A DNA stretch of 64,000 nt from Sphyrna mokarran (taxonomy: Eukaryota): contig JAGIQG010000020.1 of NCBI GenBank assembly GCA_024679065.1, positions 8,742,001-8,806,000 of the forward strand, in the 5' to 3' direction. Positions 331-59,700 of this stretch are shown here, piece after piece. Both the position numbers and the translations under genes were made by a program. Under the pieces are notes generated by a model. It was given only the letters and a program-made list of their open reading frames with translations. It had not been told where the DNA came from and did not search any database. Numbering within the stretch: position 1 is the stretch's first letter; every line of letters begins with the position of its first letter.

Positions 331-1419
331 ATGCAAAATTCGATAGATCCCTGATTGAAAAAAGGCCCAGAGAGCATATTGGTGGACCGAATGTGGGATT
401 CCGCCCACGATCTCATCAGTCACGATCTTCGGCCTGATCTTCGTTCCAATTTATATGATCGTATGATTCGTATTTGTGCCCTTTTTATGTATTTTTATCC
501 TATCAAATTTCTGAACCTTCGGATCCATAAATGTGGCGCTGGCAGCATTAGCTTTAGTGAATGACGAGGAAAGGAAGTGAGAGTAACACCTTTAGTGGCA
601 CTGGGTTCTTACTGCTTCTAATCATTCAGATTTTCTGATGTGGGCATTCACCATTAAAAAAGGGAACTCATTGAACATCCAAATTAATTGACAATACCTA
701 ATGAGAATATTCTGAAAACGACTTTTATGTCCGAATCCCTATTTTCCAAGTGTCCCTGTATTTTTGCCAGGAATTGATATTTTGAGGTCGTTTTCGCCGC
801 GCACACACTCCATGTGCAATATTGCCATCTGCTGGTTCAGCCGCGAAACGCGCACAGGTTCATTGGGATTCGTTTTGGACTTCTTTCATCTATTGTGAGA
901 AGTCCAATAGAAAGCAGGGAGAATAAAATGACAATTATAACATAAAATTTAGGATAAATTCGGGAGATCTGGTAGCACTTTTGAAGAGAGAAACACAATT
1001 TCTGCACGAGGGTTATTCGCACTGCTGTGTTCGGTGACACTGTGTTCAGTGTCTAGTAAAATAAGCGTAAATCCGGTTCGTACTTTTATGATGCATTTCA
1101 AACGTTTCGAAGACAGTTGGAGGCACAGCCTCAAACAAGGAAGCAGAACTAACACTGTAAAGCATGTCGACACTGTACTCCGGCGACTAATTGCCGGATT
1201 AGTATTGTAGAGTTCTGGAACAAGCAATGATTGTAAATCCTATCATGGTATCTGGCAATAAATATCGAACAAAAACATTTATAATAATGTTAACCATGAA
1301 ACTATTGAATTGCTGGAAAAAATCGTTTCATTGACATCATTCTGGGCAGGAAATCTGCCATCCTTATTGAATACATTTTTGTGACTCCACGTTTTCCATC
1401 GCGAAAAAGATATTGATGT

Positions 1420-3864: not shown

Positions 3865-6800
3865 GCAAAGAACAAAGGAAATTGCAGCGTAAGAACAGGC
3901 CTTCGGTCCTCCAAGTCTGCACCGACCATGCTACCCGACTGAACTAAAACCTCCTATCTTCCGAGGACCATATCGCTCTAATCCCATTCTATTTATGTGT
4001 TGTCAAGACGCCCCTTAAAAGTCACTGCCTCCCTGGACAACGAGTTCCAGGCAACCATGACCCCGTGTGTGAAAATCCTGCCTCGTACATCTCCTTTAAA
4101 CCTTGCTCATCGCATCTTAAACATGTGTCCCCTAGTAATTGCCTCTTCCACCCTGGGAAAATTCATTTAATTATCCGCGTGGTCCATGCTTCTCATAATG
4201 TGCTATCAGGTCACGCCTCAATCCCTGTCTTTCCAGTGAGAACAAACCAAGTTTCTCCAAGCTGTGCTCATAGCTGATGCCCTCCATACCATGCAATATT
4301 CTGGTAAATTTTTTGTACTTTCTCCAAAGCTTCCATGCCCTTCTGGTAGTGCGGCAACCAGAATTGAACACTATATTTCAAGTGTGGCTAACTAAAGTTC
4401 TATAAAGCCGCAATGTCATTTGCCATTTTTAAACTCAATGCCCGGCAGATGAAACCAAGCATGCCGGTTGCCTTCTTGATTACCTTTTCTACTTGCATTG
4501 ACACTTTCAGTGACATATGTATCTGTACACCCAGGTACCTTTGCCTATCAATATTCTTAAGGGTTGTACCATTTAATGTTCTTTTAGCTATTTGTATTAG
4601 ATCTTCCAATATGCATTGCCTCACATTTGTGTGGATTAAACTCCAGCTGCCCACTGACCTATAACCTGCAGTGTCCTCTGATGGTCTTTGTTGTCTGCAA
4701 ATCCAACGACTTTTGCATCATCGGCAAACTTACTAATCAATTCAGTTACATTTTCCTCCAAATCATTTATGCATATTACAAATAACAAAGTTCCCAGAAC
4801 TGATCCCTGAGGAATGCCACTTGTCATAGTCCTCCATTCAGAAACGCACACATACACTGCTACCCTGTGTCTTCTTTCACTGAGCTAGTTTCGTATCCAA
4901 CTTGCCAGCTCATCTCTGATCCATCCACCTTATAAACCAACTTGCAATGAGCGGCCTTGTCATTGGCCTTATTGAAGTCCATGCAGATAACATCTACTGT
5001 CCTACACTCATCAATGATCTTCATCATCTCCTCTAAATCTCATCATCCCTCACTTGGAGTACTGCGTCCAGTTCTGGTCACCGTACTACCGGAAGGATGT
5101 GGAGGCCTTGGAGAGAGTGCAGAGGAGATTTACCAGGGTGCTGCCTGGTATGGAAGGGCTGTCTTACGAGGTAAGATTGAACACACTGGGGTTGTTTTCC
5201 CTTGAAAGACGTCGGCTGAGAGGGGATCTAATAGAGGTATATAAGATTATAAGGGGTATAGATAGAGTAAAAGGTGGTAAGCTTTTTCCACCATTAGAAA
5301 TGGATAGAACGAGGGGTCATGGCCTTAGGGTGAGGGAGGCTATGCATAAGACGAATATTAGAGGGCAGTTTTTCACACAAAGGGTAGTGGGGGTGTGGAA
5401 TGCACTGCCTAGTAAGGTGGTGGGAGCAGGCATGCTAGGGTTGTTTAAGGGTCTCTTGGACAGCCACATGAGCGGTCTGCAGATAGAGGGATATAGCAGG
5501 ACTGTCTAAATATCTTATTTGTTTCCACAGGCAATTCGGTCCACCTTGTTGACGAACAAGGTGCATGCATTCGGCAGGTCGTGTGAGGGCTGCTCTTGGA
5601 TGTTGCTTCAGGAGTGGCCTAGTGCTTCAAGTCGTTACTATATGCTTAAACTGGACCATCTGATGGGCAACATGACAGCTCAGAGACTATCGCTGTTGTT
5701 GTGCAGACACATGGATTTGGGCCTGTGCCTGCGGGAGTTTGCGTGTTCTCCCTGTGGTTGCGTGGGTTTTCTCCAGGTGCTCCGGTCTCCTCCCACATCC
5801 CAAAAATGTGCTCCTAGGCTGATTGGGTAACAAATTGTCCCTATATTGGTCCCTATATGGGAATCTTCCACAATAGGCATAGCCTAAAGTCATGGGTATG
5901 TCATTAAGACGTTAGGACGGCTGCGTGGGCTCGTTGGGCCAAAGGGCCTGTTTCCCGTGCTGTGTTGCTCTTTGTTCTTTGTTCTTTAAAAACTCAAACA
6001 AGTTAGTGAGACACGAGCTCCACTTCACAAAACTATGGTGCCTCTCAGTAATACGTCCATGTATTTCCAAGTGGAATAAATCCTTCTTAGAAAATCCTCT
6101 CCAATCATATCCCTACCACAAATGTAAGGCTCACCAGCCTGTAATTACCTGAGTTATTCTTGCTAACCTTCTTAATCAAAGGCACAACATTGGGTAATCT
6201 CCAATCCTCTGGGACCTTCATGTAGCCAGTGAGAATACGAAGATTTATCTCAAGGCCCCAGCGATTTCCTCCCTTACCTCTCTGAGCATTCTGGAGTATA
6301 TGCCATCAGGCTCTGGTGACTAATCTACCTTAATGTTTCTCAAGAACTCCAATACCTCCTGCTTTTTGATGTCAACATTACTCAAAGTATCAACACACCT
6401 TTTCCCAGCCTCATAATCCATCAAGTCGCTCTCTTTGGTGAATACTACCACAATGTACTAATTTAATACATCACCCATTTCCTCTGGCTCCATGTATAGA
6501 TTCCCTCCCTCATCCTTGAGTGTGCCAACCATCACCTGGCTACCCTCTTGCTCTTTATACATGTATGAAAAGCCTTGGGATTTTCCTTAATCCTGCTGGC
6601 CAAGATTGTTTTGTGACCCCTTTCAACCTTCCTGATTCCTTGCTCTAGTTTCACTCTATTTTTATTATTCCGCACTTGCTTTGTGTGTTTCCAGCTTTCT
6701 AGCTTTGACAAATGCATTCTTTTGCTCTTTGACATGTCTCACAATATCTCTCGTTACCCAAGGTTCCCACACCTTGCCTTCCTTATCCTTCATCTTTACA

Positions 6801-7070: not shown

Positions 7071-8377
7071 AAATAATTTCTCTAGATCTGTCCTATCCCA
7101 TTCGTAAATCATTCTAAATACGTCGATTTTATGTAGATAGAGCACAAAGGACTGCAGAATGTGAATCGCCTTGCTGGATTTAGCAGAAAATGTTACTATT
7201 CCAATCTGTATTCTCACTCAGGTCTTTAACTTACTTCACTATAAGTGTTCTCTTTTGCAAAGACACAGGAGTGATTGCTTCAGTCATAGCCTCATATCAA
7301 ACAAGAAACAAGATATCCTGAAATATTTTCAACCATTTTGTGCAAAATTCCAATGCTGGAAAGTCCTGCCTTCTCAAATAGTTTATGCCTCTTACTGTCT
7401 CTATATAAGGCCATTCCAAGTAAGGACAAAGTTCAACATTTCTTGCGAGCCAGTTTTCCTACAGATATATTGGTATTTAGTATGCTTCCATTAAGCAGCA
7501 TGGTCCAAATTGTCAGAATATGCTCTTGACTCCACCTACCCTCAGCTGCACTGTTCTAAGATACTGCTTCCACGATCCTTGCTAAAATAAAAAAAATTTT
7601 TATTACTGGGTAGTAACTTTGGGAATATCTGAGTTTCTTTTTGTGTGTGGAATGAGGCACTCTACTAGAAGATTTACCAGGATGCTGGCCAAGCTGTGAT
7701 TATTTTTCGTAAAGCAGAGAAAGCTGAGGTGTTGTTTCATGGAGGTGCACAAATTATGAACGATATAGATAAGAAGAAACCTTTCAGCTCAGTAGAATGG
7801 GTCAATAACCAGGGGACATGGATTTAATGTAAGGAGAAAGGGATTTAGAGGAGATTTGAAGAAATACCTCGTCAGCCAGAGGATGCTGGGAACTCGCTGT
7901 CTGTAAGGGTGATGGAGCAAGGAACTCTCACAGTGTTTAGGAAACATATTGTTAAGGAATTGGAAAGTCATTGCATGGAGAGCTATGAGCCAACTGCTGG
8001 AAAATGAATTAGAATCGGTGGTCGGCACAAATGCGAAGGGCCTTATTCTGGGCTGGATTCCTCCTCCAGCTTTAAAGGGCAATATATAGCACATTTAGGC
8101 AATCGGTCTTCAAAATTGAACCCTTCAGCAATTACTTCAACCCGACGAATCAACAAATGTATCTCAGGCATTTGTATCGCTTTGCCCGCTACGGAATCAG
8201 AGCGGACGAGGGGCAGAGAAAGGAAATGTCCCTTGACCTCGGGCGGGAATTTCCGCGCTGGGTCGAGAGAGGACGTAAAAATCCCGCAGCTCAATTTGAA
8301 AACCTAAATGCAGAACTCCAGATGTGATCTGATCAAGGCTGTAGACAAAAAAAGCATTACTTCCCCGCTCCAGAAGT

Positions 8378-9047: not shown

Positions 9048-9370
9048 TCAGATACAGCTGGATCTGGAGACGGTTGTTTGAAGCGGGTTTGCTTGAGTCT
9101 CGTGTTTAACCACACAGGAGTAAAGCTCGTGTGAGTTCCACTCTGAGGCTGACAGAGTCAGATAACTGCTCACACTGAACGTGTTGTCCGCCTCCTGCTG
9201 GATCCGACTGGTCTCAACTCCATTCCCTCTGACGCTGCCATCGACAGTCCATTCAATCTCCGCAACTCCTGGGTTAAAACCGCTCACCAAACACACCAGT
9301 GTCGCTATGTTCTTCGCTGTGATTTGATCCGATGAAGGCGGAAGGACAGACACAGTGGGGCTTCGTGGAT
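9048..9370 (-). CDS. IgL: IgL constant (C1-set) exon, cluster 1
   Basis: Acceptor tttccag at 9371; PRSPTVSVLPPS..ATLVCLV..EWTVDG..YSCVVKHE..SRSSCI* with both domain Cys, the Trp and the penultimate inter-chain Cys; 323 nt, TGA at 9050-9048. Confidence 0.96.
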
Positions 9371-11019
9371 CTGGAAAGTAAAGAGAAATTTTGCACATCT
9401 ATTAAGAATCGGCATAAATGATTGAATCGTTGTTTCGCCTTCTGTTTTTTTTAATCGGTATTATTCTACAAGAAGATTTTATACAGTGGAGCCTTATTGA
9501 TGCCAAATGCAAAAAAGTCAGGACTGTGGTTTCTGGAACACATACGAACTGAGATGGTTTTTCTTTTTTCCCAGCACGGACGGGAACATGCAAATAAAAT
9601 CTGATCTAAAGAAAATAGTGGAGATTTAAATATTAAAGAGAAAAATAAGACGGGAAGTTTATTGCATCCAGGTGTGATTTGAGACAATGCTGTCCAACCC
9701 AGCATGGCGACCACCGAGGATTTCAGAATAACGTTAATCCCTCAGAATTTGGGGTCAATATTGGATCCTACTTTGACTGCAACATTTCTATATTTTGCAA
9801 CTCAAAATCCTCGATTCGAAACAATTAAATCGATTGTTTGCTTCTATCACCATTTACACTTCTTGGGTACACTGGACTGATATTTGGATTAGTGTACATT
9901 CTTTGCCAGAACTTCACACCGTGTCCAACTCAGACCAACAGTAACGATATAGCGTAAATCTTAATAAATAACTCCCTGTCGAAATGGAAATTTTTGGAGA
10001 CTTTTTTTCCGTGTGAAATGTTAGAAAAGATTCCTTACAGCAAAGAGGAAGAGTTTCTCACAAAGATTGTAAACAATTCTAGCTATATAACAACATAACG
10101 TAACGACACCATCAAAAGATTAGTAATATACCAAATATGTCCTCATTATGATTTATCTCTGACACCTTATCGCCAAAGCAAATGGACTGTGAGTTCTTAC
10201 TGCGCTTAGATACGGATCCATGATTCTGACATTTGAAGAATGATTCTATTTCACAAGTACTTCATTGTGAGGATGTTCTGAAGTCGTGGTCGGCGCTAAA
10301 TCAATGCACGTTTGCATTTTCTTGCCTTTATCATTAGTAGGTATTCGTAAAGCTGAAATGGTTCTTCCCTCTTTCAGACTCCATTTATCACTTAAGTTAC
10401 CATCTATCACAGTCAATGGGAAAACGCTCAGTAAATAAGTTAAGGCATTGTAAAGCATCGAAGAAAGTACCAAATATGAATATCCAAGGATAAGGCTAAC
10501 CTTTTACAATTCGCCCTGACATTGAGGTATTATGTCGGCTACAACAACAGTATGAAGTTTGTCGCCGTCGGTGTAAACATCGATTGTGTCTGGAGCTAAA
10601 AATTCGTCTTGTTTTTCTTGAAATGTAATTTGGATGTTGAAACTGAGTCGGCAGACAAATGCCGCCAGCCCTTATCTTAATGTCGGTATCGTCTTCTTGC
10701 GCCACCAAGAATTTCGCTGAATAATCTCAAATGTCTGCACCGATGAACAGGTGTGACGATCAACTTCTATTTAAACGAAAGCGGACTCAAGTGAATTATT
10801 TTTACACCGGCATTTTCGCCAGATATGATTTCTTAAAGCAACAACTAAAATATTTAAGAGCATTTTTCTCCTTTTTGCCTCATGCTGGTCCATTTCACCG
10901 TAACATAGTCCAATAAACAAATGACTTGTAGAAAAAAAAATTAAAAAATAAAATACTATTGAGAAGGGAAGATACCCTCACCACAATTTTCCAATCATGT
11001 TTGGAGCAGGTTTGGCTCT

Positions 11020-13595: not shown

Positions 13596-13943
13596 TGCTC
13601 AGATTCAACTTCGTTCCTCTCCCAAAAATGAAACTACATCCATTGCTGAGCCAAGCACAACAGTGATAATCTGCAGCGTCCTCCGACTGCACGTTGGTGA
13701 TGGTTAAATGCATCTTGTTACTCGATGAGTCCACAGACCCGGTGAATCGGTCTGGAATGTCTGAACCTCTGGTAGAGCTCTGGTACCAAACGAACACAGG
13801 GGTACTGCCGGATTTCTGCCAGTACCAGCTCGTGTCGTATCTGTTAATGCTGTCTCCCGACATGGTGCAGGTAATGGCGACAATCTTTCCCGGTGAAGAT
13901 GAAATGGATCGTGGTTGGGTCAGGACAGAACCCTCAATTGCAC
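13596..13943 (-). CDS. IgL: Germline-joined VJ exon, cluster 1
   Basis: Acceptor ttcaccag at 13944, donor GTAAGT at 13595; V-set motifs ITC, WYWQK, IPDRFTGS, EDAADYHC run in frame into the J motif FGRGTKL; 348 nt. Confidence 0.96.
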
Positions 13944-14078: not shown

Positions 14079-14127
14079 TGTGGAAACAGAGAATCAGTGC
14101 GGCGAGAACTCCAATAGATTGTGTCAT
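14079..14127 (-). CDS. IgL: Leader (signal peptide) exon, cluster 1
   Basis: ATG at 14127, MTQSIGVLAALILCFH, 49 nt, donor GTAAGT at 14078. Confidence 0.92.
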
Positions 14128-14248: not shown

Positions 14249-14270
14249 ATGCAAATTTCCTTTGACGTAA
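14249..14270 (-). promoter_or_regulatory. Ig promoter octamer (ATTTGCAT on the coding strand) with adjacent CRE-like TGACGTAA
   Basis: ATGCAAAT on + at 14249-14256, about 122 nt upstream of the ATG, in light-chain orientation; TGACGTAA at 14263-14270. Confidence 0.88.
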
Positions 14271-20690: not shown

Positions 20691-23600
20691 ATACAGAATT
20701 CGATAGATTCCTAATTAAAAAGGGACTCAAAGAGTATAGGGATAGACAGGAATGTGGGGTCGAGCCCACGATCACATCAGCCATGACCTTAGGCCCATTA
20801 TTCGTTTGAATTCATATGATCACATGATTCGTATTTGCGCTCTTTTTGTCTGCTTTTATCCTATTAAATTTCTGAGTCTTCGGTTCCATTAAAGTGGCAC
20901 TGGCAGCATTATATTTAATGAATGACATAGGAAAAGAAGTGAGCGTAAAACATTTAGTAACACAGGGTTCTTGCCGCTTCTAATCATTCGGATTTTCTAA
21001 TATTTATGGGCATTTTCAACTGAAAAGGCGAACTCAGTAAACATCTGAATCATTTGACAATAGTTTAAGGGAATATTTTGAAAACGACTTTCATGTCCGA
21101 ATCTCTATTTTCCAGGTGTCCGCGCATTTTGCCAGGAATTGATATTTTGAGATATTTTAACCGCAAATACACTTCGTGTAATTACATGGTCCTTGTTATA
21201 ACAAGTGCAATGTTGCCATCTGCTGGTTCAGCCCCCCAGAAAAAACGCACAAATTCATTGGGATTCGTTCTGGATTTCTTTCATCGTAGTCATGCATAGT
21301 CCAATAGCAAGCAATAGAAATTATGTTATAATTGTCACATAAAATGACAATTATAACATGAAATTCTGTATAAATTTAAGATATCTGGGAGCGCTGTGAA
21401 GAGAGAAACACAATTTCTGTATAAGGGTTATTCGCTCTGCCGTGTTGGGTGAAACAGTGCTCAGTCTTTAATAAACAGTGCTACAAGTTTTGTTTTCAAT
21501 TACGGAGGTAGTTACAGATGAGAATTAGAGGCCAGGAGTGAAAGAATTTGGGGGAGGGAGAGGCAAACATCAGAGCGCATATATAACCTAACAGAAAGCA
21601 AGAACACAACTGGTGCCATGCTGAAAACATAACTATTATTAATATAACTTGTAAAGAGTTGAGGCCACAGCATTGATCAGTGTAGCACGCCATCCCTTAC
21701 ATTTTGTCAATCAGAACATTGTCCCTTTTGCCTATCCTCTGTTTCCCGTTCACTCGCAAATTTTCTGTCCATGCTCCCTCACGATAAACTCTTATTTTCC
21801 GCAATACCCTTTGTTGCAACATCTTAGTAAATGCTTATTGAAAATCACAGTACATCCACTACTCTCCTTTATCCACAGCACTTCAAATCATTCCAATAAA
21901 TTGGCTGAATATAATTCCCTTTGACGAAACTGTGTTGGCTCTATCTGATTACTGTGGTTTTACTTAAGTGCCCTGCTATCAAATCTTTAATAATCGTTGC
22001 TAACATTTTCCTTATATGTCACATGTTCAGCTAACTGGTGTTGTTCAGCTAACATGTGTTGGTTCTTGCTTTAGGCCTTTTTCTCCTATTGCATTCAGGC
22101 GCTACATTCGAAGTTTTCCAATCTAAGGGACGCCTCCTGGAAACTGGAGAATTTTGGAACATTAAAACCAACCCATCAATTGTCTCACTTGTCACTTCTT
22201 TTAAGACATTCGGGTGAAATCTATCAGGACCTGAGGGCTTATCAACTGACATCTTCAACAACTTTCTTGGTGTCATTTCCTGATAATTCTAATTTTCTTG
22301 AGTCCTTCTCTTCCATTTACTGCTTCAAAACTATTTCTGTGACTCTACTTGTATCCTCTACAGTGAGGGCTAAAGCAAAATGCCTGCGCTCTTTAGCTGC
22401 AATCTTTGTGTTTGCTACAAATTCTCCAGACTCAATTTCTATCGGACTGTCGCCCAGTGTTTAACTTTACAACTTTAAGTTGATGTATTAGTGTCACGAG
22501 CAGGCGTACATTAACACTGCAATAAAATTACTATGAAACCTCTTAGTCTCCACACTCCAGCACTGTTCGAATGTACTGAGGGAGAATTAGCAATACTAAG
22601 CACTGTGCCACAGTGCCAAAGGCAAGAAATAACTGAAAAAAACGAGAGTACTCGGGAAACAAATCAGTTGGTCTGGAAGCATATGTGGAGACAGAAACAA
22701 AGTGAAAATTGCGCCTCTAAATGTGCCAGATGAAAATGTATGCAACGAGTTTTGTTGACCTGACATTGACTGAAAGAGTACAGGAAATCGTTCCAGTTAT
22801 AACTTCAAGATGAAAATTGGATTGATTCATGAAACTGATGTCTGCATGAAATGTTGATCAAGCACTGGAGTGCAAATTACTTGGATAGCTCTTTCAAAGT
22901 GTATGGTGGGTTAATTGTATTTTTCCGTTGTATTCATCTGTGAAATGTTTGGGAACTGCACTCAGTGTAAGGTTACTAAGTCATTTATCAACTGTGTTCC
23001 CCTTTGGAGGGAGCCAGATGTTTATCCTTTCTATGTACACATATTTTTCTTTAGCTGGTGACGTAAAGTTACATAGCCAGTTGCCATGATCAGAAATGCA
23101 AAAGTTTAAGTGATGAACGGACAGATTCAAAAATTTACATGTGAAGTTAAGAACAGTTGAAAGATTATGGCGAGAAATTGTCTTATATTAATGGGCCATC
23201 ATCACTTCTCTGTGCTTCTGTCCTAATTGTTATAGGTAAAAGACACCTCTGTGACTGCTAGTGAGTCAAAAAACAGTGAGTTTTATTTCAAAAGCTTTTG
23301 GGAGAAATCTGATCTCAACTGTGGTTTATAAGGCTTCGTTTATGCAATCGATCTTCAGAATTGAACCCTTCAGCAATTACTTCACCCTGACGAATCAGCC
23401 GTATACCCATTCATGATACCAATATATCTACGGCAATCGTACCACCTCACCCGCCACGGAATCCGAGGGGCAGAGAAAGGAAATGTCGCTTGATCTCCGG
23501 CGGGAATTTCCGGTCTCGATCGAGAGAGGCCCTAATAATCCCACAGTTCAGTGTGAAAAACTTAATGCAGCACTCCAGATGAGATCTGACCAAGGTTGTA

Positions 23601-25303: not shown

Positions 25304-25626
25304 TCAGATACATTTGGATCTGGAGATACTTGTTTGAAGCGGGTTTGCTAGAGCCTCATGTTTGACCACACAGGAGTAAAGCTCGTGTGAGTTCCACTCT
25401 GAGGCTGACAGAGTCAGATAACTGCTCACACTGAACATGTTGTCCGCCTCCTGCTGGATCCGACTGGTCTCAACTCCATTCCCTCTGACGCTGCCATCTA
25501 CAGTCCATTCAATCTCCGCCGCTCCTGGGTTAAAACCGCTCACCAAACACACCAGGGTCGCCATGTTTTTCGCTGTGATTTGATCCGGTGAAGGCGGAAG
25601 GAGAGACACAGTGGGGCTCCGTGGAC
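25304..25626 (-). CDS. IgL: IgL constant exon, cluster 2
   Basis: Acceptor tttccag at 25627; PRSPTVSLLPPSPDQITAKNMATLVCLV...YSCVVKHE...SRSKCI*; 323 nt. Confidence 0.96.
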
Positions 25627-28600
25627 CTGGAAAGTAGAGACAAATGATTGCACATCCATTAAAAATCGGCATCAATGATTGAATCGTTGTTTCACCTTCT
25701 TCAATTTTTTAAAAAATCGGCATTATTCTACAAGAATGTATAGATTTTACACAGTGGTGTCTTATTGATGCTAAATGCAAGCAAGCCGGAACTCTGGTTT
25801 CTGGAACACATGCAACCTGAGAAGGTTTTCTTTTTTACCCTGCACGGACAGGAACAGGCAAATAAAATGTGATCTAAATAGTGGAGTTTGAAATGTTAAG
25901 AAGAAAAATAAAACGGGAGGTTTATTGCATCCATATGTGCTCTGAAGCAATGCTGTCCAAACCATTGTCGCAACCATCGACAATTTCAGAATAACGCTAA
26001 CCACTCAGAACTTGGTGTCAATATTGGAACCTATGCTGACCACATCATTTCTAAATGTTTCGCTGAATAATCTCAAATGCTGGCAACATTGAGCAGGTGT
26101 GACGATCACTTTCTATTTAAACGAAAGCGGATTCAAGTGAATTATTTTTACATCGGCATGTTCGCCAGATATGATTTCTTAAAGTAACATCTAAATTGTT
26201 CAAGAGCATTTTTCTCCCTTTTGCTGCATGCTGATCCATTTCACAGTAACATAGTCCAATAAACAAATGACTTGTAGAGGAAAATTTAAAAAAAGGGAAG
26301 AGACCCCTATCACAATTTTCCAATCGTGCCTGGAGCAGGCTTGGCCCTCGGAGACAGGAAGACAGATAAAATTGTGAAAGGACAAAAGGGGGGTAGCATA
26401 GAGACAGACCAGTGAACCCAATCTCATTAAAGAGAGAACAATTGGAATAAACGCGGCATAATCAAATACAGTGATTACGGCTTTGTTAGCAATCTTAGCC
26501 TAGCGTGAATTAGTACTTTTGAGCAGGTGGATGAGCAGTGAATTGCGGTAATATTTTTGGTATAGCCTAAATGAATTTCAGCAAGATTCTTGTTAAGTTC
26601 ACACATAGGTATGAACAGTTTGGATCAGAAATTGGATCAGAGGCAGGAAGCAAAGATTCCGTATATCAATGAGTGCCTCTATGATTGTTGTCAGATGATA
26701 CAAAATTGGCACTGTGGTTGCTAACGAAGAAAGCTGGATAATGCAGGAAGACAATAGAGGACTAGTCGGATAAATGCAACAGCGGCAAATAGAATTAAAT
26801 GCGGAACTGTATTTCAAGAAGGCCAACAAGACCAGCGATTACACTGTATAAATGGGACAATGCCGTGAAATATAGAGAACTCAGTGAAATGAAAATGAAT
26901 GTTCACAGATCCTGAATGCGGCTGAGCAAGTGGATATGGTAGCAAAGAAGGCATTATAATCCGAGGTATAGATTCTTACAACTTGGATATTATGTTGAAA
27001 CTGCTGGAAAGGTGCGTAAGGAAATGAAACGGGGACGAGTACAGGGGAGATCGAGAGGGGCGTAACGGCTGAAATGGAATATTTAGTTATTAGTAAATGT
27101 TGAATTGACCAGCGTTCTTTTCTTTGGAACAGACGAGACTGAAAGAAGATCTAATTGAAGCATAATATTCTGAGGTGTCTGGGCAGAATGGATAGGAAAA
27201 CAGTATTGCCGATGGTTGGGGGGCCGATAAGAATGGGGGTTGCATTTAGCGTTAGAAATAGAAGATTTAGTGGAGATAGAAGAGAATAGTTTCACCCAGA
27301 GAGTTTAGGGGATGTGGAACCTACTGCCGGAAAGGCTATTAGTAGCAAATTAATGGACACTTAAACGCACATACAATGTGTAATCGAAAGGCTAATTATT
27401 AAATGTTGGATTATTCCTTGTGAACCAGTGCAGACATAATTGGCCAAGTAGATTGTAACAACGTTGCGAAGGTATATCATTTCTATGATTCTGCGAATAT
27501 AATATATTGCTTTCCGCCTTCAGTGACGCACAGGGGCTACGGTGTGCGTATTTATAAGGTACACTGCCGCAACTCCGACAAGAGCTTCCAAACCAGCAAT
27601 GGACGAACACGTGGCCGCAGATGCACGGCAGCACCACCAGTTAATAAATCCCCATCAAGCTACACAATATACCAAAGTAGAACTATACCGCATTTCCTTC
27701 ACTTGTCAAAAACTCTTAGCCCCCTCCCTACGAGCACTGAGATACACCTAAGACACATGGACAACATCGGTTGAGAATGTGGCTCACCATCACTTTATCC
27801 ATGAATATTAGGCGGGGAGGGGAGGGCGGCAATGAATGTTAGCTTTCTGATCACATCCTATGAATCAACAAAAATGTTAGCAATCCCCATGTTTTGTTCT
27901 ATTACAACTCACTGACAATCACAGAACCAGCGGCAGTGCTAAATGAGTCCACAGCAATACTCAAAAACCTGGCAACCGAGTCCGGGGCATTCCAAAACTG
28001 ATTGGATGGGAAGAAAATGAACCGTAATTTCCGAAGGAAGCAAATATTCTGCGCATCATTGATTTTTGTTACTGTGATCCAGTAACGATCAGGGTCGATT
28101 ATTACTGGCGGAATTCTCGCAACAGTATGGTTATTTCGGTCAGCTGTGATTAGTGCGAAATATTAGGCTGAGAATTTTGTACTGAACTGTGTTCAGTGAG
28201 TTTGGGGACAAGTGTGAGTGAGTCGCACCCACTTACCACACTATCCTTCAATGCAAGAAAGATCTTAAAACTCAATGTTGCTTTAAGTGGAGTAAAGCAA
28301 CCTGATGTGAATGTTTTGAATGGAATTCGATGCCGTTTAAAACAGACGACAAGAGCAGCGTGTGAAACAGTCTGAACCACTTTATGGTTTTCATGCAATC
28401 ACGGAGTTATAGAGCACACAAAGGGGGACGATGGTAACTTGTAAAAAAACCCTGCCAGTTTAGCTCATTTCCAGGCCTGTTTTTTCACATTTGAATGAGA
28501 GGTCACTCCACTCCTAATACTGGCTGAGCGAAGGAAAACATCCCATTTTTCGAGCAATCGGCATTCAAATCGCGCTGCCGACTGAATCAGATGTCTCAAA

Positions 28601-29103: not shown

Positions 29104-29448
29104 TGCCCAGATTCAACTCAGTTCCTCTCCCGAAAGCGTAACTACTTTGACTGTTGATCCAATCACTGCAGTAATAATCTGCAGCGTCCTCCGATTGCAC
29201 GTTGGTGATGGTTAAATGCATTTTGTTTCTTGATGAGTCCACAGACCCGGCGAATCGATCTGGAATACCCGAAGCCATACCAGAGTATTGGGACCAAACA
29301 AGCACAGGGACGCTGCCGGGTTTCTGCCAGTACCAGCTCGGGTAGCTGCTAATGCTTTCTCCGGACTTGGTGCAAGTGATGGTGACGGTCTTTCCCGGTG
29401 AAGACGAAATGGATTCTGGTTGGGTCAAGACAAGATCCGCAATTGTAC
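29104..29448 (-). CDS. IgL: Germline-joined VJ exon, cluster 2
   Basis: TIADLVLTQPESISSSPGKTVTITC...WYWQKPG...DYYCSDWINSQSSYAFGRGTELNLG; acceptor at 29449, donor GTAAGT at 29103; 345 nt. Confidence 0.96.
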
Positions 29449-29602: not shown

Positions 29603-29651
29603 TGTGAAAACAGAGTAGCAGTGCGGCGAGAACTCCAATCGGTTGTGTCAT
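29603..29651 (-). CDS. IgL: Leader exon, cluster 2
   Basis: MTQPIGVLAALLLCFH, 49 nt, donor GTAAGT. Confidence 0.92.
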
Positions 29652-29772: not shown

Positions 29773-29793
29773 ATGCAAATTTCCTGGCACGTG
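29773..29793 (-). promoter_or_regulatory. Ig promoter octamer plus E-box CACGTG, cluster 2
   Basis: ATGCAAAT at 29773-29780; CACGTG at 29788-29793. Confidence 0.88.
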
Positions 29794-34742: not shown

Positions 34743-37700
34743 ACAGGGAATCTAACCGTTGTCCCTTGACATACAATGGTATTGCCACCGCTGTCGACAT
34801 CCTAAGGTGAATATTGACAGGAAACTGAACTGATCCTGACGTTTAAGATGGCTACAAAAACAGGTCAGAGGCTATGAATCCTGTGACAAGTATCTCATTT
34901 CCTGACTCGCCAAACCTGTCCACCATCTGCGAGTCAGAAGTGAGGAATGCGATAGAATATTTGCACTCGCCTGAAGCTTCTATAACTTTCAAGCAGATTA
35001 GACCATCCATGACAAAATTTGACTGGCACCTATTCCACAAACTCCCTCCGCGACGCTGAACAGTGGCAGCAGTTTGTACCATTTGCAAGATGCGCTGCAA
35101 AATCCCATAGGAGCTCCATTGGCAGCATCTTACAAAATTACATCGCTACCGTCCAGGAGGACAAAGGAGGCAGACACATGGGAATTCACCACCATTTTAA
35201 CGCTTCCCTCCAAGTTATTCGCAATCTGACATGAGGGTATATTGCTTACTTAGACCACAGGGACTGCGCTGATTCAAACAAAGCAATTCACCACCATCAT
35301 CACGAGGGCAATTGCGGTGAAGAATAAATGCTGGTCTAGTCAGGATGTTCACATCACGTTAAAAAAGATGCAGAATTCGATTGAAAAGGGATCCAAAGAA
35401 TATAGGGGTAGACAGGAATTAGGGGTCGAGCCAAGACCACATCAGCAACGATCTTAGGCCTAATCCTCCTTCCAATTCATACAATCGTATAATTTGTATT
35501 TGCGCCTTTCTTGCCCATTTTTATCTTGCCAAATTTCTGAAACTTCGAATCCACTAATGTGGCACTGGCAGTATTATCTTTAGTGAATGAAGCAGGAAAG
35601 GAAGTGAGAGTAACACATTTCGTAACATTGGTTTCTTACTGCTTCTAATCATTCGTATTTTCTAATATTATAGACAGTCACCACTAAAAAGGCGAACACA
35701 TTAAACATCGAAGTTAATTGACAATACCTAACGAGAATATTCTGAAAATGACTTCCATGTCTGAATCCCTATTTATCAAGTATCTACGTATTAGGCCAGG
35801 AATTGATATTTTGAGATAATTTTCGCCGCCTAGACACTCCATGTAACAACACGGTCCCTGGTATATCAATTGCAATATTGCCATCTGCTGGTTCAGCCGT
35901 ACAACGTGCAGAGATTCATTGGGATTCAGTTTGGACTTCTTTCATCTATTGTATATAGTCCAATAGAAAGCAGGGGAAATGAAATGATAATTATAACATG
36001 AAATTCAGGATAAATTCAGGAACTCTGATCGCACTTGTGAAGAGAGAAACACAAGTTCTGTATAAGGGTTGTTTCCACTGCTGTGTTTGGTGAAAGTGTT
36101 CAGTCTCCAGTAAATTAAGTGTAAATCCCATCAGTACCTTTATCATGCATTTCAAACGTTTCGAAAACAGGTGCAGGCGCAGCCTCAAACAAGGCAATAG
36201 GAACTAACACTGTAAAGAATGCCGGACGCTGTAGATTGACCATTAATTGCCGGATTAGTATTGCAGAGTCCTGGAAAAAGCAATGATTCTGAATCTCTTC
36301 ATGGTGTCTGGCAATAAATCTTGAACATAAGTAATTATAATTATGTTAACAAAAAACTCTGAATTGCCGAAAGAAACGTTCTCTTCATTAACATCATTCC
36401 GGCAGGAAGTCCTTAATGAGTACATTCGTGACTTCACGTTTTCGGTCCCGAAAAAGATACAGAAGCCCGAGGCCATGTACCAACCAAGTTAAGAACAGCT
36501 TCTTCCCTGCTGCTCTTAAATTTTGAATGGATCTAAGTCGCATTAAGTTAACGTTTCTCTGCACCCTAGCCATGACAGTAACAACACATTCGACACTCTT
36601 GCCTTTTCTTCTCTATGAATGGCATGCTTTATCGGTATAGCATGTAAGATACAATACCAGTCACCGTATGCTAATACATAAAACAAGAACACATCACATC
36701 AAATCAAATCAAAAGTATTTGTGCCATTAGGTGTGCAATGCATGACAGCCACATTAATAAGACGCTGTTAGCAGTTCTCTTGAGAATGGACCTCCTGATC
36801 TATTGGTTTACGTGTTACAGAAAGAGCCGTTCACCTGAAATAATTCGAAAAATAACAGCAAAGTAAGGTCAAAGCGGCAGTAGCGCAACTTTTGTTTTCA
36901 ATTCCGGAAGTAGTTACAGATGAGAATTAGAGCTCAGGAGTGAAGTAGTTTGGTGGAGGGAGAGGAAAACATCAGAGCGTATGTAAAGCCTAGCAAAAAG
37001 CAAGAACACAACTGATGCCATGCTGAAAGCACACCATTATTTATACATATTGTAAAGAGTCGAGGCCACAGCACTGATCATGTAGCATACCACTCCTCAC
37101 ATCTTGCCAATCACAAAATTGTCCCTTTTGCCTACTCTCCGTTTCCTGTTCGCTCGCAAATTTTCTGTCAATGACCCCAGACGATAAACTCTCATTTTCC
37201 GCAATACTCTTTGCTGTCACATCTTATTAAATACTTACTGGAAAATACAGTACATCCACCTGCTCTCCTTTATCCACAGCATGTTACTTCTTTAAATCAC
37301 TCCAGTAAATTGATTCAACATGACTTCTCTTTGACCAAACTGTGTTGGCGCTTTCTGATTACTGTGAATTTACTAATGTGCCCTGCTATCAAACCTTAAT
37401 AACCGCTAAATATGTTTTCCTTATATGTCACATGTTCAGCTGACTTGCGTTGTACAGCTAACGTGTTTCTACTTTAGGTCTCTTTTTCCTATTGCATTAA
37501 ACTGATACATCTGCTGTTTTCCAATCCAATGGACGCTTCCCAGAAACTGGGGAACATTAAAACCAACCCATCAATTATCTCATTTGTCACTTCTTTTAAG
37601 ACTTTCAGGTAAAATCCAGCAAGACCTGAGGACTTATGAACCGACATCTTCAACAACTTTCTGAGTGTTATTTCCCTGACGATTCTAATTTTCCTGAGTC

Positions 37701-45056: not shown

Positions 45057-45379
45057 TCACATACAGCTGGATCTGGAGATGCTTGTTTGAAGCGGGTTTG
45101 CTTGAGTCTCGTGTTTGACCAGACAGGAGTAAAGCTCGTGTGAGTTCCACTCTGAGGCTGACAGAGTCAGATAACTGCTCACACTGTACGTGTTGTCCGC
45201 CTCCTGCTGGACCCGACTGGTTTCAACTCCATTCCCTCTGACGCTGCCATCTACAGTCCATTCAATCTCCGCAGCTCCGGGGTTAAAACCGCTCACCAAA
45301 CACACCAGGGTCGCCATGTTCTTTGCTGTGATTTGATCCGATGAAGGTGGAAGGAGAGACACAGTGGGGCTCCGTGGAC
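45057..45379 (-). CDS. IgL: IgL constant exon, cluster 3
   Basis: Acceptor tttccag at 45380; PRSPTVSLLPPSSDQ...YSCLVKHE...SRSSCM*; 323 nt. Confidence 0.96.
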
Positions 45380-48300
45380 CTGGAAAGTAGAGACAATGAT
45401 CGCACATCTATTAAAAATCAACATAAAACACTGAATCGTTGTTTCACCTTCTTCAGATTTTGTTTAAAATCGCTATTATTCTACAAGAATGTATACATTT
45501 TATATAGTGGAGTCTTATTGATGCCAAATGCAAAAAGGCTGGGACTCTGGTTTCTGGTTTCTGGAAGACATACAACCTGAGAAGGTTTTCCTTTTTCCCC
45601 TGCACGGACGGGAACATGCAAATATTAAAGAGAAAAATAAGAAGGAAGGTTCCGTGCATCCACTTGTAATCTGAAGGAACGCTGTCCTAGCGGGCGTCAC
45701 GGTCACCGAGAATTCCAGAATAAGAATTGTTTGCTTCTGTCACCATTTACACTTAACTGACACAAATCCTACATACTGGACTGATATTTGGGTTTGTGTA
45801 CATTTTTTGCCGTGGCCTCACACCGTGTGCCGCCCAGACCAACAAGTGAGGATGTAGCGTAAATCTTAACAAATAACTTCCTATCGCAATGGAAATGTTT
45901 GGAGACATTTTTTCCGACTGTCACAAACAATTTGTTACAACTAAGAGGAAGAGTTTCTAATCAATATTGTAAACAATTCTAATACATAACAGCATCACCT
46001 AATGACAACCTCAAAAGGCCAGTAATAAAGCAAACGTGTCCTCATAATTATTTATCTCTCATACCTTGTGGCCAAAGCAGATGGACTGTGAGATCTTATT
46101 GTGCTTAGATAGGGGACCCGTGATTCTGACAATTGAAGAATGATTCTGCATCACAAAGACTTAATTGTGGGCATATTCTGAGATCGTGGTCGGCGCTCAG
46201 TCAATGAAAGTTTGCATTTTCTTTTCTTTGTCATTAGTCGATATTCGCAAAGCTGAAAGGGCGTTGTCTCTTTAAGTGACCATTTACCGCTTAAGTTACC
46301 ATCTATCACAATCAATGGGGAAACGCTGAGTAAATACGTTAAGACATTGTAAGGCATCAAAGAAAGGGTTCAGATATGAATATTCATTTCAAATTAAAAG
46401 GACAAGGCTAACCTCTTACAATTCGCCCTGACATTGTGGTATTATGTCTGCTACTATAACAATATGAGGTTTGTCGCTGTCGGCGTAAAAATAGATTATC
46501 TTTGGAGCTAGAAATTCGTCTTATATTTTGAAATGTAATATTCATCCTGTCGCAGAGAGGATGACTAATGAAATTGTGACCGGGCTAAAGGGGATGGCAT
46601 AGTTATAGACTAGTGAACATAGCCTCACTGAAGGGAGAACGAATGGAATAAACGCGGCGTAATCAAATGCAGCAATCACGACATTGCTAGCGGAAAGTCT
46701 TATCCCAATGCGTGAATTGGTATTTTTGAGCAGGTATCATGAGCGGTGAATGACGGCAATATTTTTGCTATAGTCTACATGGATTTTAACAAGGCTCTTG
46801 TTAAGTTCACACATTGGATGAACAGGTTTGATCCGAAATTGGTTCAGAGGCGGAAACAAAGGGTCCGTATATCAATGAGTGCCTCTATGATTGTTGTTAG
46901 ATGAAACAAATTTGGCAATGTGGTTGCGAACGAAGGAAACTGAATAATGCAGGAAGACAGCAATGGACTAGTTAGATAAATGCAACAGCGGCAAATGGGA
47001 TTAAATGCCGAAAAGCGTGAGCAACTGCATTACTGGAAGGCCAACAAGACAAGCGAGTACACGGCATAAATGGGATAATGCCTTTAAATGTGGCGAAACT
47101 GAGTGACTTGAAAATGCATGTCCACAGATCCAGAAGGTGACACAGCAAGTGTTATGGTAGCAAAGGAGGCATGCGGGGCACTTATATTTATGTGCCGGTT
47201 GTTAGAACTTGGAGTTTATGCTGAAACTGTTGGAAAGATGCATAGAAAAAATGTAATTGTACGGGAGCGAGAACAGGGAGATCTGGAGTCAGCTGAAATG
47301 GAATATTTAGTTATAAGTAAGTATTGAAATGTCCTTTTCTTTGGAACAGAAGAGGCTGAAGACAAATCTAGTTGAAGGCATAATATTCTGAGGTGTCCGG
47401 GCAGAATGAATCGGAAAACAGTATTGCCAATGGTTGCGGCTCCATAAGTACGGAGCTTGGATTTAGCGTTAGAAGTAGAAAGGTTAGCGGAGATTGGAAG
47501 GGAATAGTTTCACCCAGAGTGTTTAGGGGTGTGGAACCTATTGTCGGAAAGTCTGTTAGTGACAGATTAATGGACATTTAAATGCACATACAATGTGTAA
47601 TCTGAAGACTAATTAATAAATGATGGATTGTTCCTTGTCAACCAGCGCAGACACGATTGACCAAGTAGATAGTAATAATGCTGCAAAGATATATCATTCG
47701 ATGATTCCACGAATATATTGTATTGTTTTCCTCCCTCATTCAGGCACAGGGCTACAGTGTGCAAATTTATAAGATACAGTGTCGCAATTCCAACATGAGC
47801 TTCCAAACCAGCCATGTCTTCCACTGGATGAACACACGCGCAGCAGATGCACGGCAGCACAACCAGTTGGTAAATCCCCATCAAGTTACACAGCCTACCA
47901 AAGTAGAACTATACTGCCTTTCCTTGGCGAAAAACTCTTAGTTCCCTCCTTAACAGCTCTGTGGTGTACCTATTACAAATGCTTTCTGATCATATCCCAT
48001 GAATCAATAAAAATGGCAATAATCCGCACGTTTTGTTCTATTACAACTCACTGACAATCACAGAACCAGCAACAATCTGAACAAGTCCACAACAATATTC
48101 AAAAACCTGGCAACTTATTCCGAGACATTCCAAAAGAACTGATTGGGTAGAAAGAAAATGAACCGTAATTTCCGACAAAGCAAATATTCTGCGCATGCTT
48201 GATGTTTGTTAATGTGCGATCCAGTAACAATCAGGATCTATTATTACTGGCTGAATTCTCGCAACAATATTGTTATTTTGGATACCCGGGGTTAATGCGA

Positions 48301-49583: not shown

Positions 49584-49934
49584 TGTCCAGATTCAACTTC
49601 GTTCCTCTCCCGAAAATGAAACTATATGGACTGCTGCTATATCGAGCACCACAGTAGTAATCTGCAGCATCCTCCGACAGCACGTTGGTGATGGTTAAAT
49701 GCACCTTGTTACTCGATGAGTCCACAGACCCGGCGAATCGATCTGGAATACCCGAAGCCATGCCATAGCTCTCGGACCAAACAAGCACAGGGGCACTGCC
49801 GGGTTTCTGCCAGTACCAGCTCGTGTAGTAGCTGCCAATGCTGCCTCCGGACATGGTGCAAGTGATGGTGACGGTCTTTCCCGGTGAGGACGAAATGGAT
49901 CCTGGTTGGGTCAGGACAGGATCCGCAATCGCAC
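49584..49934 (-). CDS. IgL: Germline-joined VJ exon, cluster 3
   Basis: AIADPVLTQPGSISSSPGKTVTITC...WYWQKPG...DYYCGARYSSSPYSFIFGRGTKLNLD; acceptor at 49935, donor GTAAGT at 49583; 351 nt. Confidence 0.96.
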
Positions 49935-50070: not shown

Positions 50071-50119
50071 TGTGAAAACAGAGTATCAGTGCGGCGAGAA
50101 CTCCAATCGATTGTGTCAT
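50071..50119 (-). CDS. IgL: Leader exon, cluster 3
   Basis: MTQSIGVLAALILCFH, 49 nt, donor GTAAGT. Confidence 0.92.
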
Positions 50120-50240: not shown

Positions 50241-50261
50241 ATGCAAATTTCCTGGCACGTG
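50241..50261 (-). promoter_or_regulatory. Ig promoter octamer plus E-box CACGTG, cluster 3
   Basis: ATGCAAAT at 50241-50248; CACGTG at 50256-50261. Confidence 0.88.
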
Positions 50262-56792: not shown

Positions 56793-59700
56793 AACAGGGA
56801 ATCTAACCGTTGTTCCTTGACATACAATGGTATTGCCATCGCTGTCGATATCCTAAGGTGACCATTGACAAGAAACTGAACTGATCCTGACGTTTAAGAT
56901 GGCTACAAAAACAGGTCAGAGGCTATGAATCCTGTGACAAGTATCTCATTTCCTGATTCGCCAAACCTGTCCACCATCTGCGAGTCAGAAGTGAGGAATG
57001 CGATAGAATATTTGCACTCGCCAGAAGCTTCTATAACTTTCAAGCAGATTAGACCATCCATGACAAAATTTGACTGGCACCTATTCCACAAACTCCCTCC
57101 GCGACGATGAACAGTGGCAGCAGTGTGTACCATTTGCAAGATGCACTGCAAAATCCCAGAGGAGCTCCATTGGCAGCATCTTACAAAATTACATCGCTAC
57201 CGTCCAGGAGGACAAAGGAAGCAGACACATGGGAATTCACCATCATTTTAACGCTTCCCTCCAAGTTATTCGCAATCTGACATGGGGATATATTGCTTAC
57301 TTAGACCACAGGGACTGCGCTGATTCAAACAAAGCAATTCACCACCATCATCACGAGGGCAACTGCGGTGAAGAAAAAATGCTGGTCTACTCAGCATGTT
57401 CACATCACGTTAAAAAAGATGCAGAATTCGATTGAAAAGGGACCCAAAGAATATAGGAGTAGACAGGAATTAGGGGTCGAGCCAAGACCACATCAGCAAC
57501 GATCTTAGGCCTAATCCTCCTTCCAATTCATACAATCGTATAATTCGTATTGCGCCTTTCTTGCCCATTTTTATCTTGCCAAATTTCTGAAACTTCGAAT
57601 CCACTAATGTGGCACTGGCAGTATTATCTTTAGTGAATGAACCAGGAAAGGAATTGAGAGTAACACATTTCGTAACATTGGTTTCTTACTGCTTCTAATC
57701 ATTCGAATTTTCTAATATTATGGACAGTCACCACTAAAAAGGCGAACACATTATACATCGAAGTTAATTGACAATACCTAACGAGAATATTCTGAAAATG
57801 ACTTCCATGTCTGAATCCCTATTTATCAAGTATCTACGTATTAGGCCAGGAATTGATATTTTGAGATAATTTTCGCCGCCTAGACACTCCATGTAACAAC
57901 ACGGTCCCTGGTATATCAATTGCAATATTGCCATCTGCTGGTTCAGCCGTAAAACGTGCAGAGATTCATTGGGATTCAGTTTGGACATCTTTCATCTATT
58001 GTATATAGTCCAATAGCAAGCAGGGGGAATGAAATGATAATTATAACATGAAATTCAGGATAAATTCAGGAACTCTGATCGCACTTGTGAAGAGAGAAAC
58101 ACAAGTTCAGTATAAGGGTTATTTGCACTGCTGTGTTTGGTGAAAGTGTTCAGTCTCTAGTGAATAAAGTGTAAATCCCATCAGTACCTTTATCATGCAT
58201 TTCAAACGTTTCGAAAACAGGTGCAGGCGCAGCCTCAAACAAGGCAATAGGAACTAACAGTGTAAAGAATACCGGACGCTGTAGATTGACCACTAATTGC
58301 CGGATTAGTATTGCAGAGTCCTGGGAAAAGCAATGATTCTGAATCTCTTCATGGAATCTGGCAATAAATCTTGAACATAAGTAATTATAATCATGTTAAC
58401 AAAAAACTCTGAATTGCTGAAAGAAACGTTCGCTTCATTAACATCATTCCGGCAGGAAGTCCTTAATGAGTACATTCGTGACTTCACGTTTTCGGTCCCG
58501 AAAAAGATACAGAAGCCCGAGGCCAGGTACCAACCAAGTTAAGAACAGCTTCTTCCCTGCTGCTCTTAAATTTTGAATGGATCTATATCGCATTAAGTTA
58601 ATGTTTCTCTGCACCCTAGCCATGACTGTAACAACACGTTCGACACTCTTGCCTTTTCTTCTCTATGAATGGCATGCTTTATCGGTATAGCATGTAAGAT
58701 ACAATACCTGTCACCGTATGCTAATATATAAAACAAGAACACATCACATCAAATCAAACCAAAAGTATTTGTGCCATTAGGAAAACGTGTACAATACATG
58801 ACCAGCCACGTTAATAAGACGCTGTTAGCAGTTCTCTGGAGAATGGACCTTCTGGTCCGATTGGTTTACGTGTTACAGAAAGAGCCGTTCACCTGAAATA
58901 ATTCGAAAAATAACAGCAAAGTAAGGACAAAGCGGCAGTAGCGCAACTTTTGTTTTCAATTCCGGAAGTAGTTTCAGATGAGAATTCGAGCTCAGGAGTG
59001 AAGTAGTTTGGTGGAGGGAGAGGAAAACATCAGAGCGTATGTAAAGCCTAGCAGAAAGCAAGAACACAACTGATGCCATGCTGAAAGCACACCATTATTT
59101 ATATATATTATAAAGAGTCGAGGCCACAGCACTGATCATGTAGCATATCACTCCTTACATCTTGCCAATCACAAAATTGTCCTTTTTGCCTACTCTCCGT
59201 TTCCTGTTCGCTCGCAAATTTTCTGTCAATGACCCCAGACGATAAACTCTCATTTTCCGCAATACTCTTTGCTGTCACATCTTATTAAATACTTACTGGA
59301 AAATACATTACATCCACCTGCTCTCCTTCATCCACAGCGTGTTTTTCTTTAAATCACTCCCGTAAATTGATTGAACATGACTTCTCTTTGACAAAACTGT
59401 GTTGGCGCTATCTGATTACCGTGAATTTACTAATGTGCCCTGCTATCAAACCTTAATAACCGCTAAATATATTTTCCTTATATGTCACATGTTCAGCTAA
59501 CTTGCGTTGTACAGCTGAAGTGTTTCTGCTTTAGGTCTCTTTTTCCTATTGCATTAAACTGATACATCTGCTGTTTTCCAATCTAATGGACGCTTCCCAG
59601 AAACTGGGGAACATTAAAACCAACCCATCAATTATCTCATTTGTCACTTCTTTTAAGACTTTCAGGTAAAATCCAGCAAGACCTGAGGACTTATCAACCG

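Follow-up and report, generated by a model that had tools for sequence, protein, structure and literature searches.

A conserved CTCF-type element, probably borne by an old repeat, lies upstream of germline-joined lambda light-chain units in Sphyrna mokarran

Ten of the 11 minus-strand units in an array of germline-joined immunoglobulin light-chain genes of Sphyrna mokarran (group A) carry, 6-9 kb upstream of V, a short oriented element built around a CTCF-type core. Comparison of its copies makes it quite probable, in our judgement, that CTCF binding at the element is under selection. We hold, with about even confidence, that it is a conserved putative CTCF element of old repeat origin, which would act as a one-way stop for cohesin facing its own gene.

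The stretch of DNA analysed (the window; 64,000 nt, positions 8,742,001 to 8,806,000 of contig JAGIQG010000020.1) contains three complete light-chain units, U1 to U3, all on the minus strand. Every one of them consists of an octamer promoter, a leader exon, a fused VJ exon without recombination signal and a single constant exon of its own, located respectively at 14249..14256, 14079-14127, 13596..13943 and 9051..9368 in U1, at 29773-29780, 29603-29651, 29104..29448 and 25307..25627 in U2, and at 50241-50248, 50071-50119, 49584..49934 and 45060..45380 in U3. The octamers match ATTTGCAT, which we take to be the promoter octamer. The VJ exons encode V-set domains with FGRG in frame and contain no internal CACAGTG or CACTGTG heptamer; the PDB matches prominently feature lambda V domains. 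The constant exon of U2 is of the C1-set, and those of U1 and U3 were located by the constant-exon search. We label the units lambda, an assignment based on the PDB matches and on the published germline-joined lambda genes of cartilaginous fish, of which all those studied so far are germline-joined according to excerpts of reviews (PMC4279169, PMC2193156). The units resemble the NS3/type II lambda miniclusters of the same excerpts, likewise made of leader, fused VJ, one C and octamer; no CTCF element is mentioned for those miniclusters among the matches listed.

A genome search returned 21 close constant exons on one contig, C772, in two groups. Group A (8.72-8.99 Mb) comprises 13 VJ-C units, U0 to U12, with U6 inverted, plus one orphan partial C, and group B (7.94-8.06 Mb) comprises 7 lambda units, the joined VJ being apparently intact in 6. 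Broken members on the contig are the orphan partial C (C772:8722489), a unit with frameshifted V and C (8955826-8959132) and two V exons with stops (8979936 and 8018394). The constant exons of five group B units share 84-88% protein identity with those of the window and the V regions 42-47%, a contrast that suggests gene conversion among C exons. In two units, at 9588 and 45616, the intron between J and C holds a further octamer some 220 bp ahead of the constant exon; it is altered in the third unit. Found in lineage a only (see below), it is a candidate intronic enhancer.

The focal element occupies 21206..21226 on the minus strand, with a 13-nt CTCF-type core (21214-21226) and an 8-nt downstream tail, and it lies 7.2 kb upstream of the U1 VJ exon, at which it points. 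Paralogous elements of core plus tail are found on the same strand at 815..835 (core 823-835; the VJ exon is 6.5 kb away, beyond the left edge of the window), 35871..35891 (core 35879-35891; 6.4 kb upstream of the U2 VJ exon) and 57921..57941 (core 57929-57941; 8.0 kb upstream of the U3 VJ exon). An earlier note on this DNA had described an identical CTCF-like 13-mer with an internal E-box at four places, amid flanks diverged by substitutions and indels. All of this was borne out: TGCCATCTGCTGG occurs exactly at 823, 21214, 35879 and 57929, always as read on the plus strand, agrees with the consensus of that note, CCASYAGRKGGCR, at 13/13 positions and includes CAGATG, and pairwise flank identity is 76-83%. 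The flanks of the copies at 35879 and 57929 are 97% identical, so that the window represents three independent copies; among these, an invariant 13-mer begins at 2.2% of the 5,236 well-aligned columns, with 28 invariant runs of at least 13 nt and 5 of at least 19 nt. The uniform orientation described in the earlier note is real but, like the number of one per unit, expected because tandem duplication copied the sites with the units. From the window alone, the claim of a special motif is suggestive; the remaining units of the array are needed to lift it above chance.

The 19-mer around the motif occurs six times in the genome, upstream of U0 to U5 (lineage a). The spacers of U7 to U10 (lineage b) do not align with those of lineage a, and each holds an exact core, on the minus strand as in lineage a, 6.4-9.4 kb upstream of V. 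A copy with one mismatch, c6, lies 4.3 kb upstream of the inverted U6 and aligns with the a5 copy over 92 bp at 71%; it keeps the orientation of the array while U6 is inverted, and consequently points away from the U6 gene. All 11 array copies, c6 included, are on the minus strand, and they fit the consensus of the earlier note at 13/13 positions in ten cases and 12/13 in the eleventh. We found no element with the frameshifted U11, whose flank homology stops about 5 kb upstream, before the site, nor with U12, which has a stop in V. Each of the four b-type elements has a tandem twin 42 bp upstream with a decayed core (L225-L228, at C772:8889334, 8910191, 8929870 and 8948751). Three positions differ between lineage-b paralog pairs in the twin core and 0-1 in the intact core; the twin can serve as a built-in negative control.

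Across the four sub-lineages of lineage a (5,560 well-aligned columns), the element falls in the joint-longest invariant run, of 21 nt; three invariant runs of at least 19 nt were seen against 0.9 in shuffles, and the second run of 21 nt lies 49 bp downstream of the element. Variation among seven representative copies is restricted to core positions 4, 5 and 8, which are degenerate in CTCF sites, with a single off-consensus change among them (A at 5 in c6), whereas positions 17-21 are invariant and agreement falls beyond about 22. The core survived in lineages whose spacers barely align.

Lineages b and c were first located using the CTCF consensus, and a consensus-blind comparison was therefore needed. 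We compared 198 a-conserved with 767 b-conserved non-repeat 22-mers, and the closest a/b pair was this element, at 4 mismatches, with the runner-up at 6; strand, reversed and complemented controls reached 6-8, and letter shuffles reached 4 in 3/100. In the c6 spacer, the element was the best match to an a-word (3 mismatches) and stood at 4 mismatches from lineage b, tied with one other word. For lineages b and c, only this blind test is independent of the consensus. A cross-lineage 20-mer scan allowing 5 mismatches was not strict enough, giving 38, 28 and 3 islands where the reversed control gave 6, and was set aside in favour of the blind test. A second island common to the c6 spacer was rejected as presumably a LINE-like fragment. 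None of the 11 copies overlaps sequence repeated in a 1.1-Mb background, as a known high-copy repeat under the motif would. In two DNA sequencing runs covering the region, the differences were all of the paralog type, and the runs provided no independent evidence.

By itself, a bare core match proves little, because the 3,280 exact 13-mer cores in the genome (one per 845 kb) are only 1.2-1.7 times the 1,880-2,760 expected from Markov models. Their number is 24 times that of the reversed pattern, a control that we rejected as proof of enrichment since the Markov models overshoot the reversed pattern as well (315-560 expected, 136 seen).

The element is likely a CTCF site, with binding by CTCF predicted from its letters. 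That part of the earlier reading which made it a CTCF-type site, here seen to be under selection and not an E-box, is supported; the part that made it a boundary closing each cluster and underlying exclusion is not supported. Every one of the 6 a-type copies includes CAGATG, but none of the 5 b- and c-type copies does. The 21-nt conserved span would fit the continuous 21-bp footprint of CTCF ZF7-ZF1 given in passages of PMC10484683, in a register that we infer. Among the downstream letters, those at 16-18 (ATT or GTT) and the G at 19 suit ZF2/ZF1, an ATT preference of ZF2 being proposed in an excerpt of bioRxiv 2021.09.23.461552, and the tail at 19-21 reads GCA where ZF1 prefers GAG according to PMC10484683, in the same passages. 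Outside the array, 35 cores are accompanied by TTGC at 17-20, compared with 19 when the place is shifted. The upstream module (ZF9-11) was placed at -17/-18 from oligos in portions of PMC12885311 and bioRxiv 2023.12.05.569896. It is absent from the window copies, which score 5, 2, 3 and 3 of 9, a score of at least 5 being reached in 720/5,000 draws (14%) of random DNA; in the focal element it is broken by an insertion. The b-type copies have a variant, TGTCATAY, at -17, shared with unlinked sites described below. Lamprey, chicken and human have similar CTCF motifs according to portions of PMC5504073, and these species bracket sharks.

The core reads in the direction of transcription, facing its own promoter, V and C, and the 3' block of the previous unit lies on its upstream side, away from its facing. 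Given binding, we consider action as a one-way anchor somewhat probable. Under the orientation rules of loop extrusion, as set out in excerpts of PMC5859386 and PMC7811963, cohesin arriving from a unit would halt at the upstream site of that unit, and cohesin from the preceding unit would pass the site, which faces away from it. Contacts of each promoter with regulatory DNA at its own unit or further downstream would be favoured, and the enhancers of one unit would be kept from promoters further upstream; promoter use might then be evened out, with units that would not be sealed domains.

The closest match is found at the mouse Ig-lambda locus, where a B-lineage CTCF site lies outside each V and faces the J-C-enhancer end, as described in passages of Loguercio et al. 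2018 (PMC5859386). Both loci are of the cluster type, with a single site just beyond each lambda V that is directed at the J-C end belonging to that V. The mouse sites were detected by ChIP-seq, face a convergent site on the far side of the enhancer and have been considered in connection with V-J rearrangement. The shark sites are predicted and belong to pre-joined units, and our search revealed no partner for them. Likewise, the convergent CTCF pairs that flank clusters in mouse Ig-lambda and TCR-gamma have a partner downstream of each cluster, of which no counterpart with up to 2 mismatches recurs in the shark array. The arrangement of a CTCF site outside V-lambda is already known in mouse, and the shark element is probably a variant of it, CTCF-type and selected. 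None of the matches listed, as judged from titles and abstract openings, describes CTCF sites at shark Ig clusters or the long motif, and CTCF is absent from the text of PMC12227049. Rearrangement cannot limit which lambda gene a shark B cell uses, because the genes are germline-joined. The array suggests that the mouse arrangement of CTCF sites upstream of V-lambda can be kept without recombination, which would indicate a transcriptional role. A selected, oriented CTCF-type site before almost every unit would offer defined targets for probing the part played by chromosome folding, and the locus supplies its own controls, namely the decayed twin, c6 next to the inverted U6, and group B, whose joined lambda units lack the element.

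The earlier note had read the element as an enhancer-blocking boundary around each cluster, making units independent and allowing one gene per cell without rearrangement. Such a role is unproven and partly contradicted, and we regard it as improbable. It is consistent with one site per interval in 10/11 minus-strand units and with the b-type copies, which keep the variant upstream module at the canonical place; excerpts of PMC12885311 and PMC7811963 add that tandem CTCF sites can insulate and that orientation mattered less in one screen. According to the excerpt of PMC12885311, however, enhancers downstream of a CTCF core are blocked better than upstream ones. Because the core points toward its own promoter, the 3' block of the previous unit is on the less well blocked side; the orientation is unfavourable for blocking that block, as the core would face downstream elements of its own unit. 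The upstream module, which is associated with insulators, is also missing from the window copies. In addition, we saw no convergent partner recurring from unit to unit in the 265-kb array, where the recurring opposite-strand matches with up to 2 mismatches are limited to two-copy families and a coding match in the U6 C exon.

The 3' block contains, at 23502..23511 on the plus strand, a word that we take to be kB-like; its homologues lie at 8245 and about 43771. This kB block is common to the six lineage-a units, with the word altered in U0, was not found in the other two lineages and has weak matches to dispersed repeats. Further kB matches at 6577 and 42145 lie inside an apparent LINE fragment, an identity that we assume. 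As an enhancer, the block is an uncertain candidate. The placement described in the earlier note, in the interval from the 3' flank of a unit to the next octamer promoter, holds, but the NF-kB block, a putative enhancer, belongs to one lineage only. Close to where the array ends upstream, an inverted repeat of 500 bp (C772:8973004-8973503) contains two divergent one-mismatch CTCF-like cores, an arrangement that looks boundary-like.

The distribution of the element also speaks against a boundary of this kind. The element family was absent from the 7 lambda units of group B in a profile search, from 200 kb of kappa-type clusters (7/28 units sampled), from sigma-like units (4/4) and from 200 kb with 3 IgM clusters, and no exact core was found in group B or in the sampled kappa, sigma-like and IgM regions; the labels kappa, sigma-like and IgM are our assumption from sequence features. 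Moreover, insulation separates units but by itself does not pick one. Functional lambda mRNA is reportedly present in kappa-surface-positive shark B cells. Heavy-chain exclusion has been explained by rare activation, according to an excerpt of PMC2435157. In group B, 3/7 units have unrelated candidates with 1-2 mismatches 5-8 kb upstream, facing V, and core matches at 1-2 mismatches occur 9-14 times per 100 kb. Two V genes of group B each have, 7-8 kb upstream and directed at the gene, a one-mismatch core (C772:7946232 and 7969375) with an upstream module scoring 6/9; these cores are not of the same family. A two-mismatch site upstream of V and facing it in 5/7 sampled kappa units (C1548:81096616, 81150989, 81180196, 81210205 and 81238236) was discarded as uninformative, because its flanks are 88-94% identical and such matches are common.

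Competition of the sites for one shared enhancer and a reverse-facing anchor located past the array on its downstream side, in the manner of protocadherin choice, appears to us just as improbable as the boundary. The likeness to clustered protocadherins is that paralogous promoters each have a CTCF site (here predicted) in the same orientation, in a system where a gene has to be chosen without rearrangement, and designs with oriented sites are known from Pcdh, Igh and TCR-beta according to passages of PMC7811963 and PMC5859386. All 11 copies face one way, even c6, and the candidates in 3/7 group B units face the opposite way, so that the two groups would converge. However, uniform orientation is expected from duplication, and each shark unit has its own constant exon. 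Pcdh sites flank promoters and face reverse sites at the shared enhancer, as passages of PMC7811963 describe, whereas the shark sites lie 6-9 kb upstream of V and the 635 kb between the groups, downstream of the array, contains no exact core that could provide a reverse anchor. One-mismatch matches in these 635 kb number 11, 7 of them on the plus strand, against 6 in the control. The more elaborate proposal that a repeat-seeded, protocadherin-like CTCF array would let a B cell choose one ready-made light chain by loop extrusion, with the mouse V-lambda sites as the same design, seems to us quite doubtful.

The evidence for a repeat origin, part of the one-way stop reading that we prefer, came from genome-wide pattern searches. 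A b-derived pattern from -3 to +25, allowing 2 mismatches, gave 9 matches, namely the 4 b-type elements and 5 unlinked sites (control 0), and 3/5 unlinked sites have the b-type word TGTCA(T/A)A(C/T) exactly at -17, which was not part of the search pattern. The reciprocal pattern gave 9 matches, 3 of them new, with a related tail in 2/3. These searches define a 45-60 bp family at 7 unlinked places, with variant upstream word, CTCF core and long tail (L223, L224, L229, L230, L231, L232 and L240, on C1, C668, C993, C335, C882, C446 and C1215, respectively, near base 1500 in each). The five of the seven sites that were checked lie outside background-repeated sequence, and Rfam had no matches in the 7 loci. 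Some unlinked copies are alike up to about 55 bp upstream, and because this likeness reaches beyond the CTCF footprint, an old dispersed repeat is the likely source.

In a profile built from the 7 unlinked sites, which were picked with b-derived patterns, ten array copies were the top ten in 1.15 Mb, at 17-60 bits (reversed control, 10.6 bits); the focal copy was missed because of its insertion. With the core blanked, 5/6 a-type copies scored -0.3 to 7.9, the focal copy -9.6 and 43 unselected cores -48.7 to -6.8, a comparison that is partly circular, since the pattern used for selection already included the first 8 letters of the tail. In lineage a, core and tail are retained but most upstream letters of the repeat are gone. 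The recurrence of the longer form at 7 unlinked places makes it probable that the element is a CTCF site which came with a repeat and was retained by selection. Repeat-borne CTCF sites are known in mammals and, in lamprey, from hAT and Gypsy families, according to portions of PMC5504073. As in those cases, the shark CTCF motif is embedded in a short sequence recurring at unlinked places; unlike in them, unlinked copies number only 7 and no element class is assigned.

The recurrence of the 45-60 bp form would equally suit a passive relic, that is, a fragment of a dispersed repeat with a CTCF-like word, copied along with the units and devoid of a local role. Shared repeat ancestry would explain part of the cross-lineage likeness without selection, and the frequency of invariant 13-mers in the window alignment and the modest Markov enrichment of the core are compatible with it. 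We nevertheless find it quite improbable, given that the core survived while the spacers became unalignable, that its substitutions are at degenerate positions only, that the adjacent lineage-b twin decayed, and that lineage a shed flanking repeat letters yet kept core and tail. Binding by an E-protein or another factor within a distal enhancer, without architectural function, is very improbable, for although CAGATG is found in every a-type copy and the second invariant 21-nt run of lineage a is close by, the E-box is missing in 5/11 copies while the CTCF letters remain, and the conserved span of 21-22 nt is far longer than an E-box.

The lambda constant exons contain one or two CTCF-like matches each, with 1-2 mismatches and in the same orientation, at 9189-9201, 25445-25457, 25492-25504, 45198-45210 and 45245-45257 in the window; one, at C772:8939001, is exact. 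Coding constraint may be their cause.
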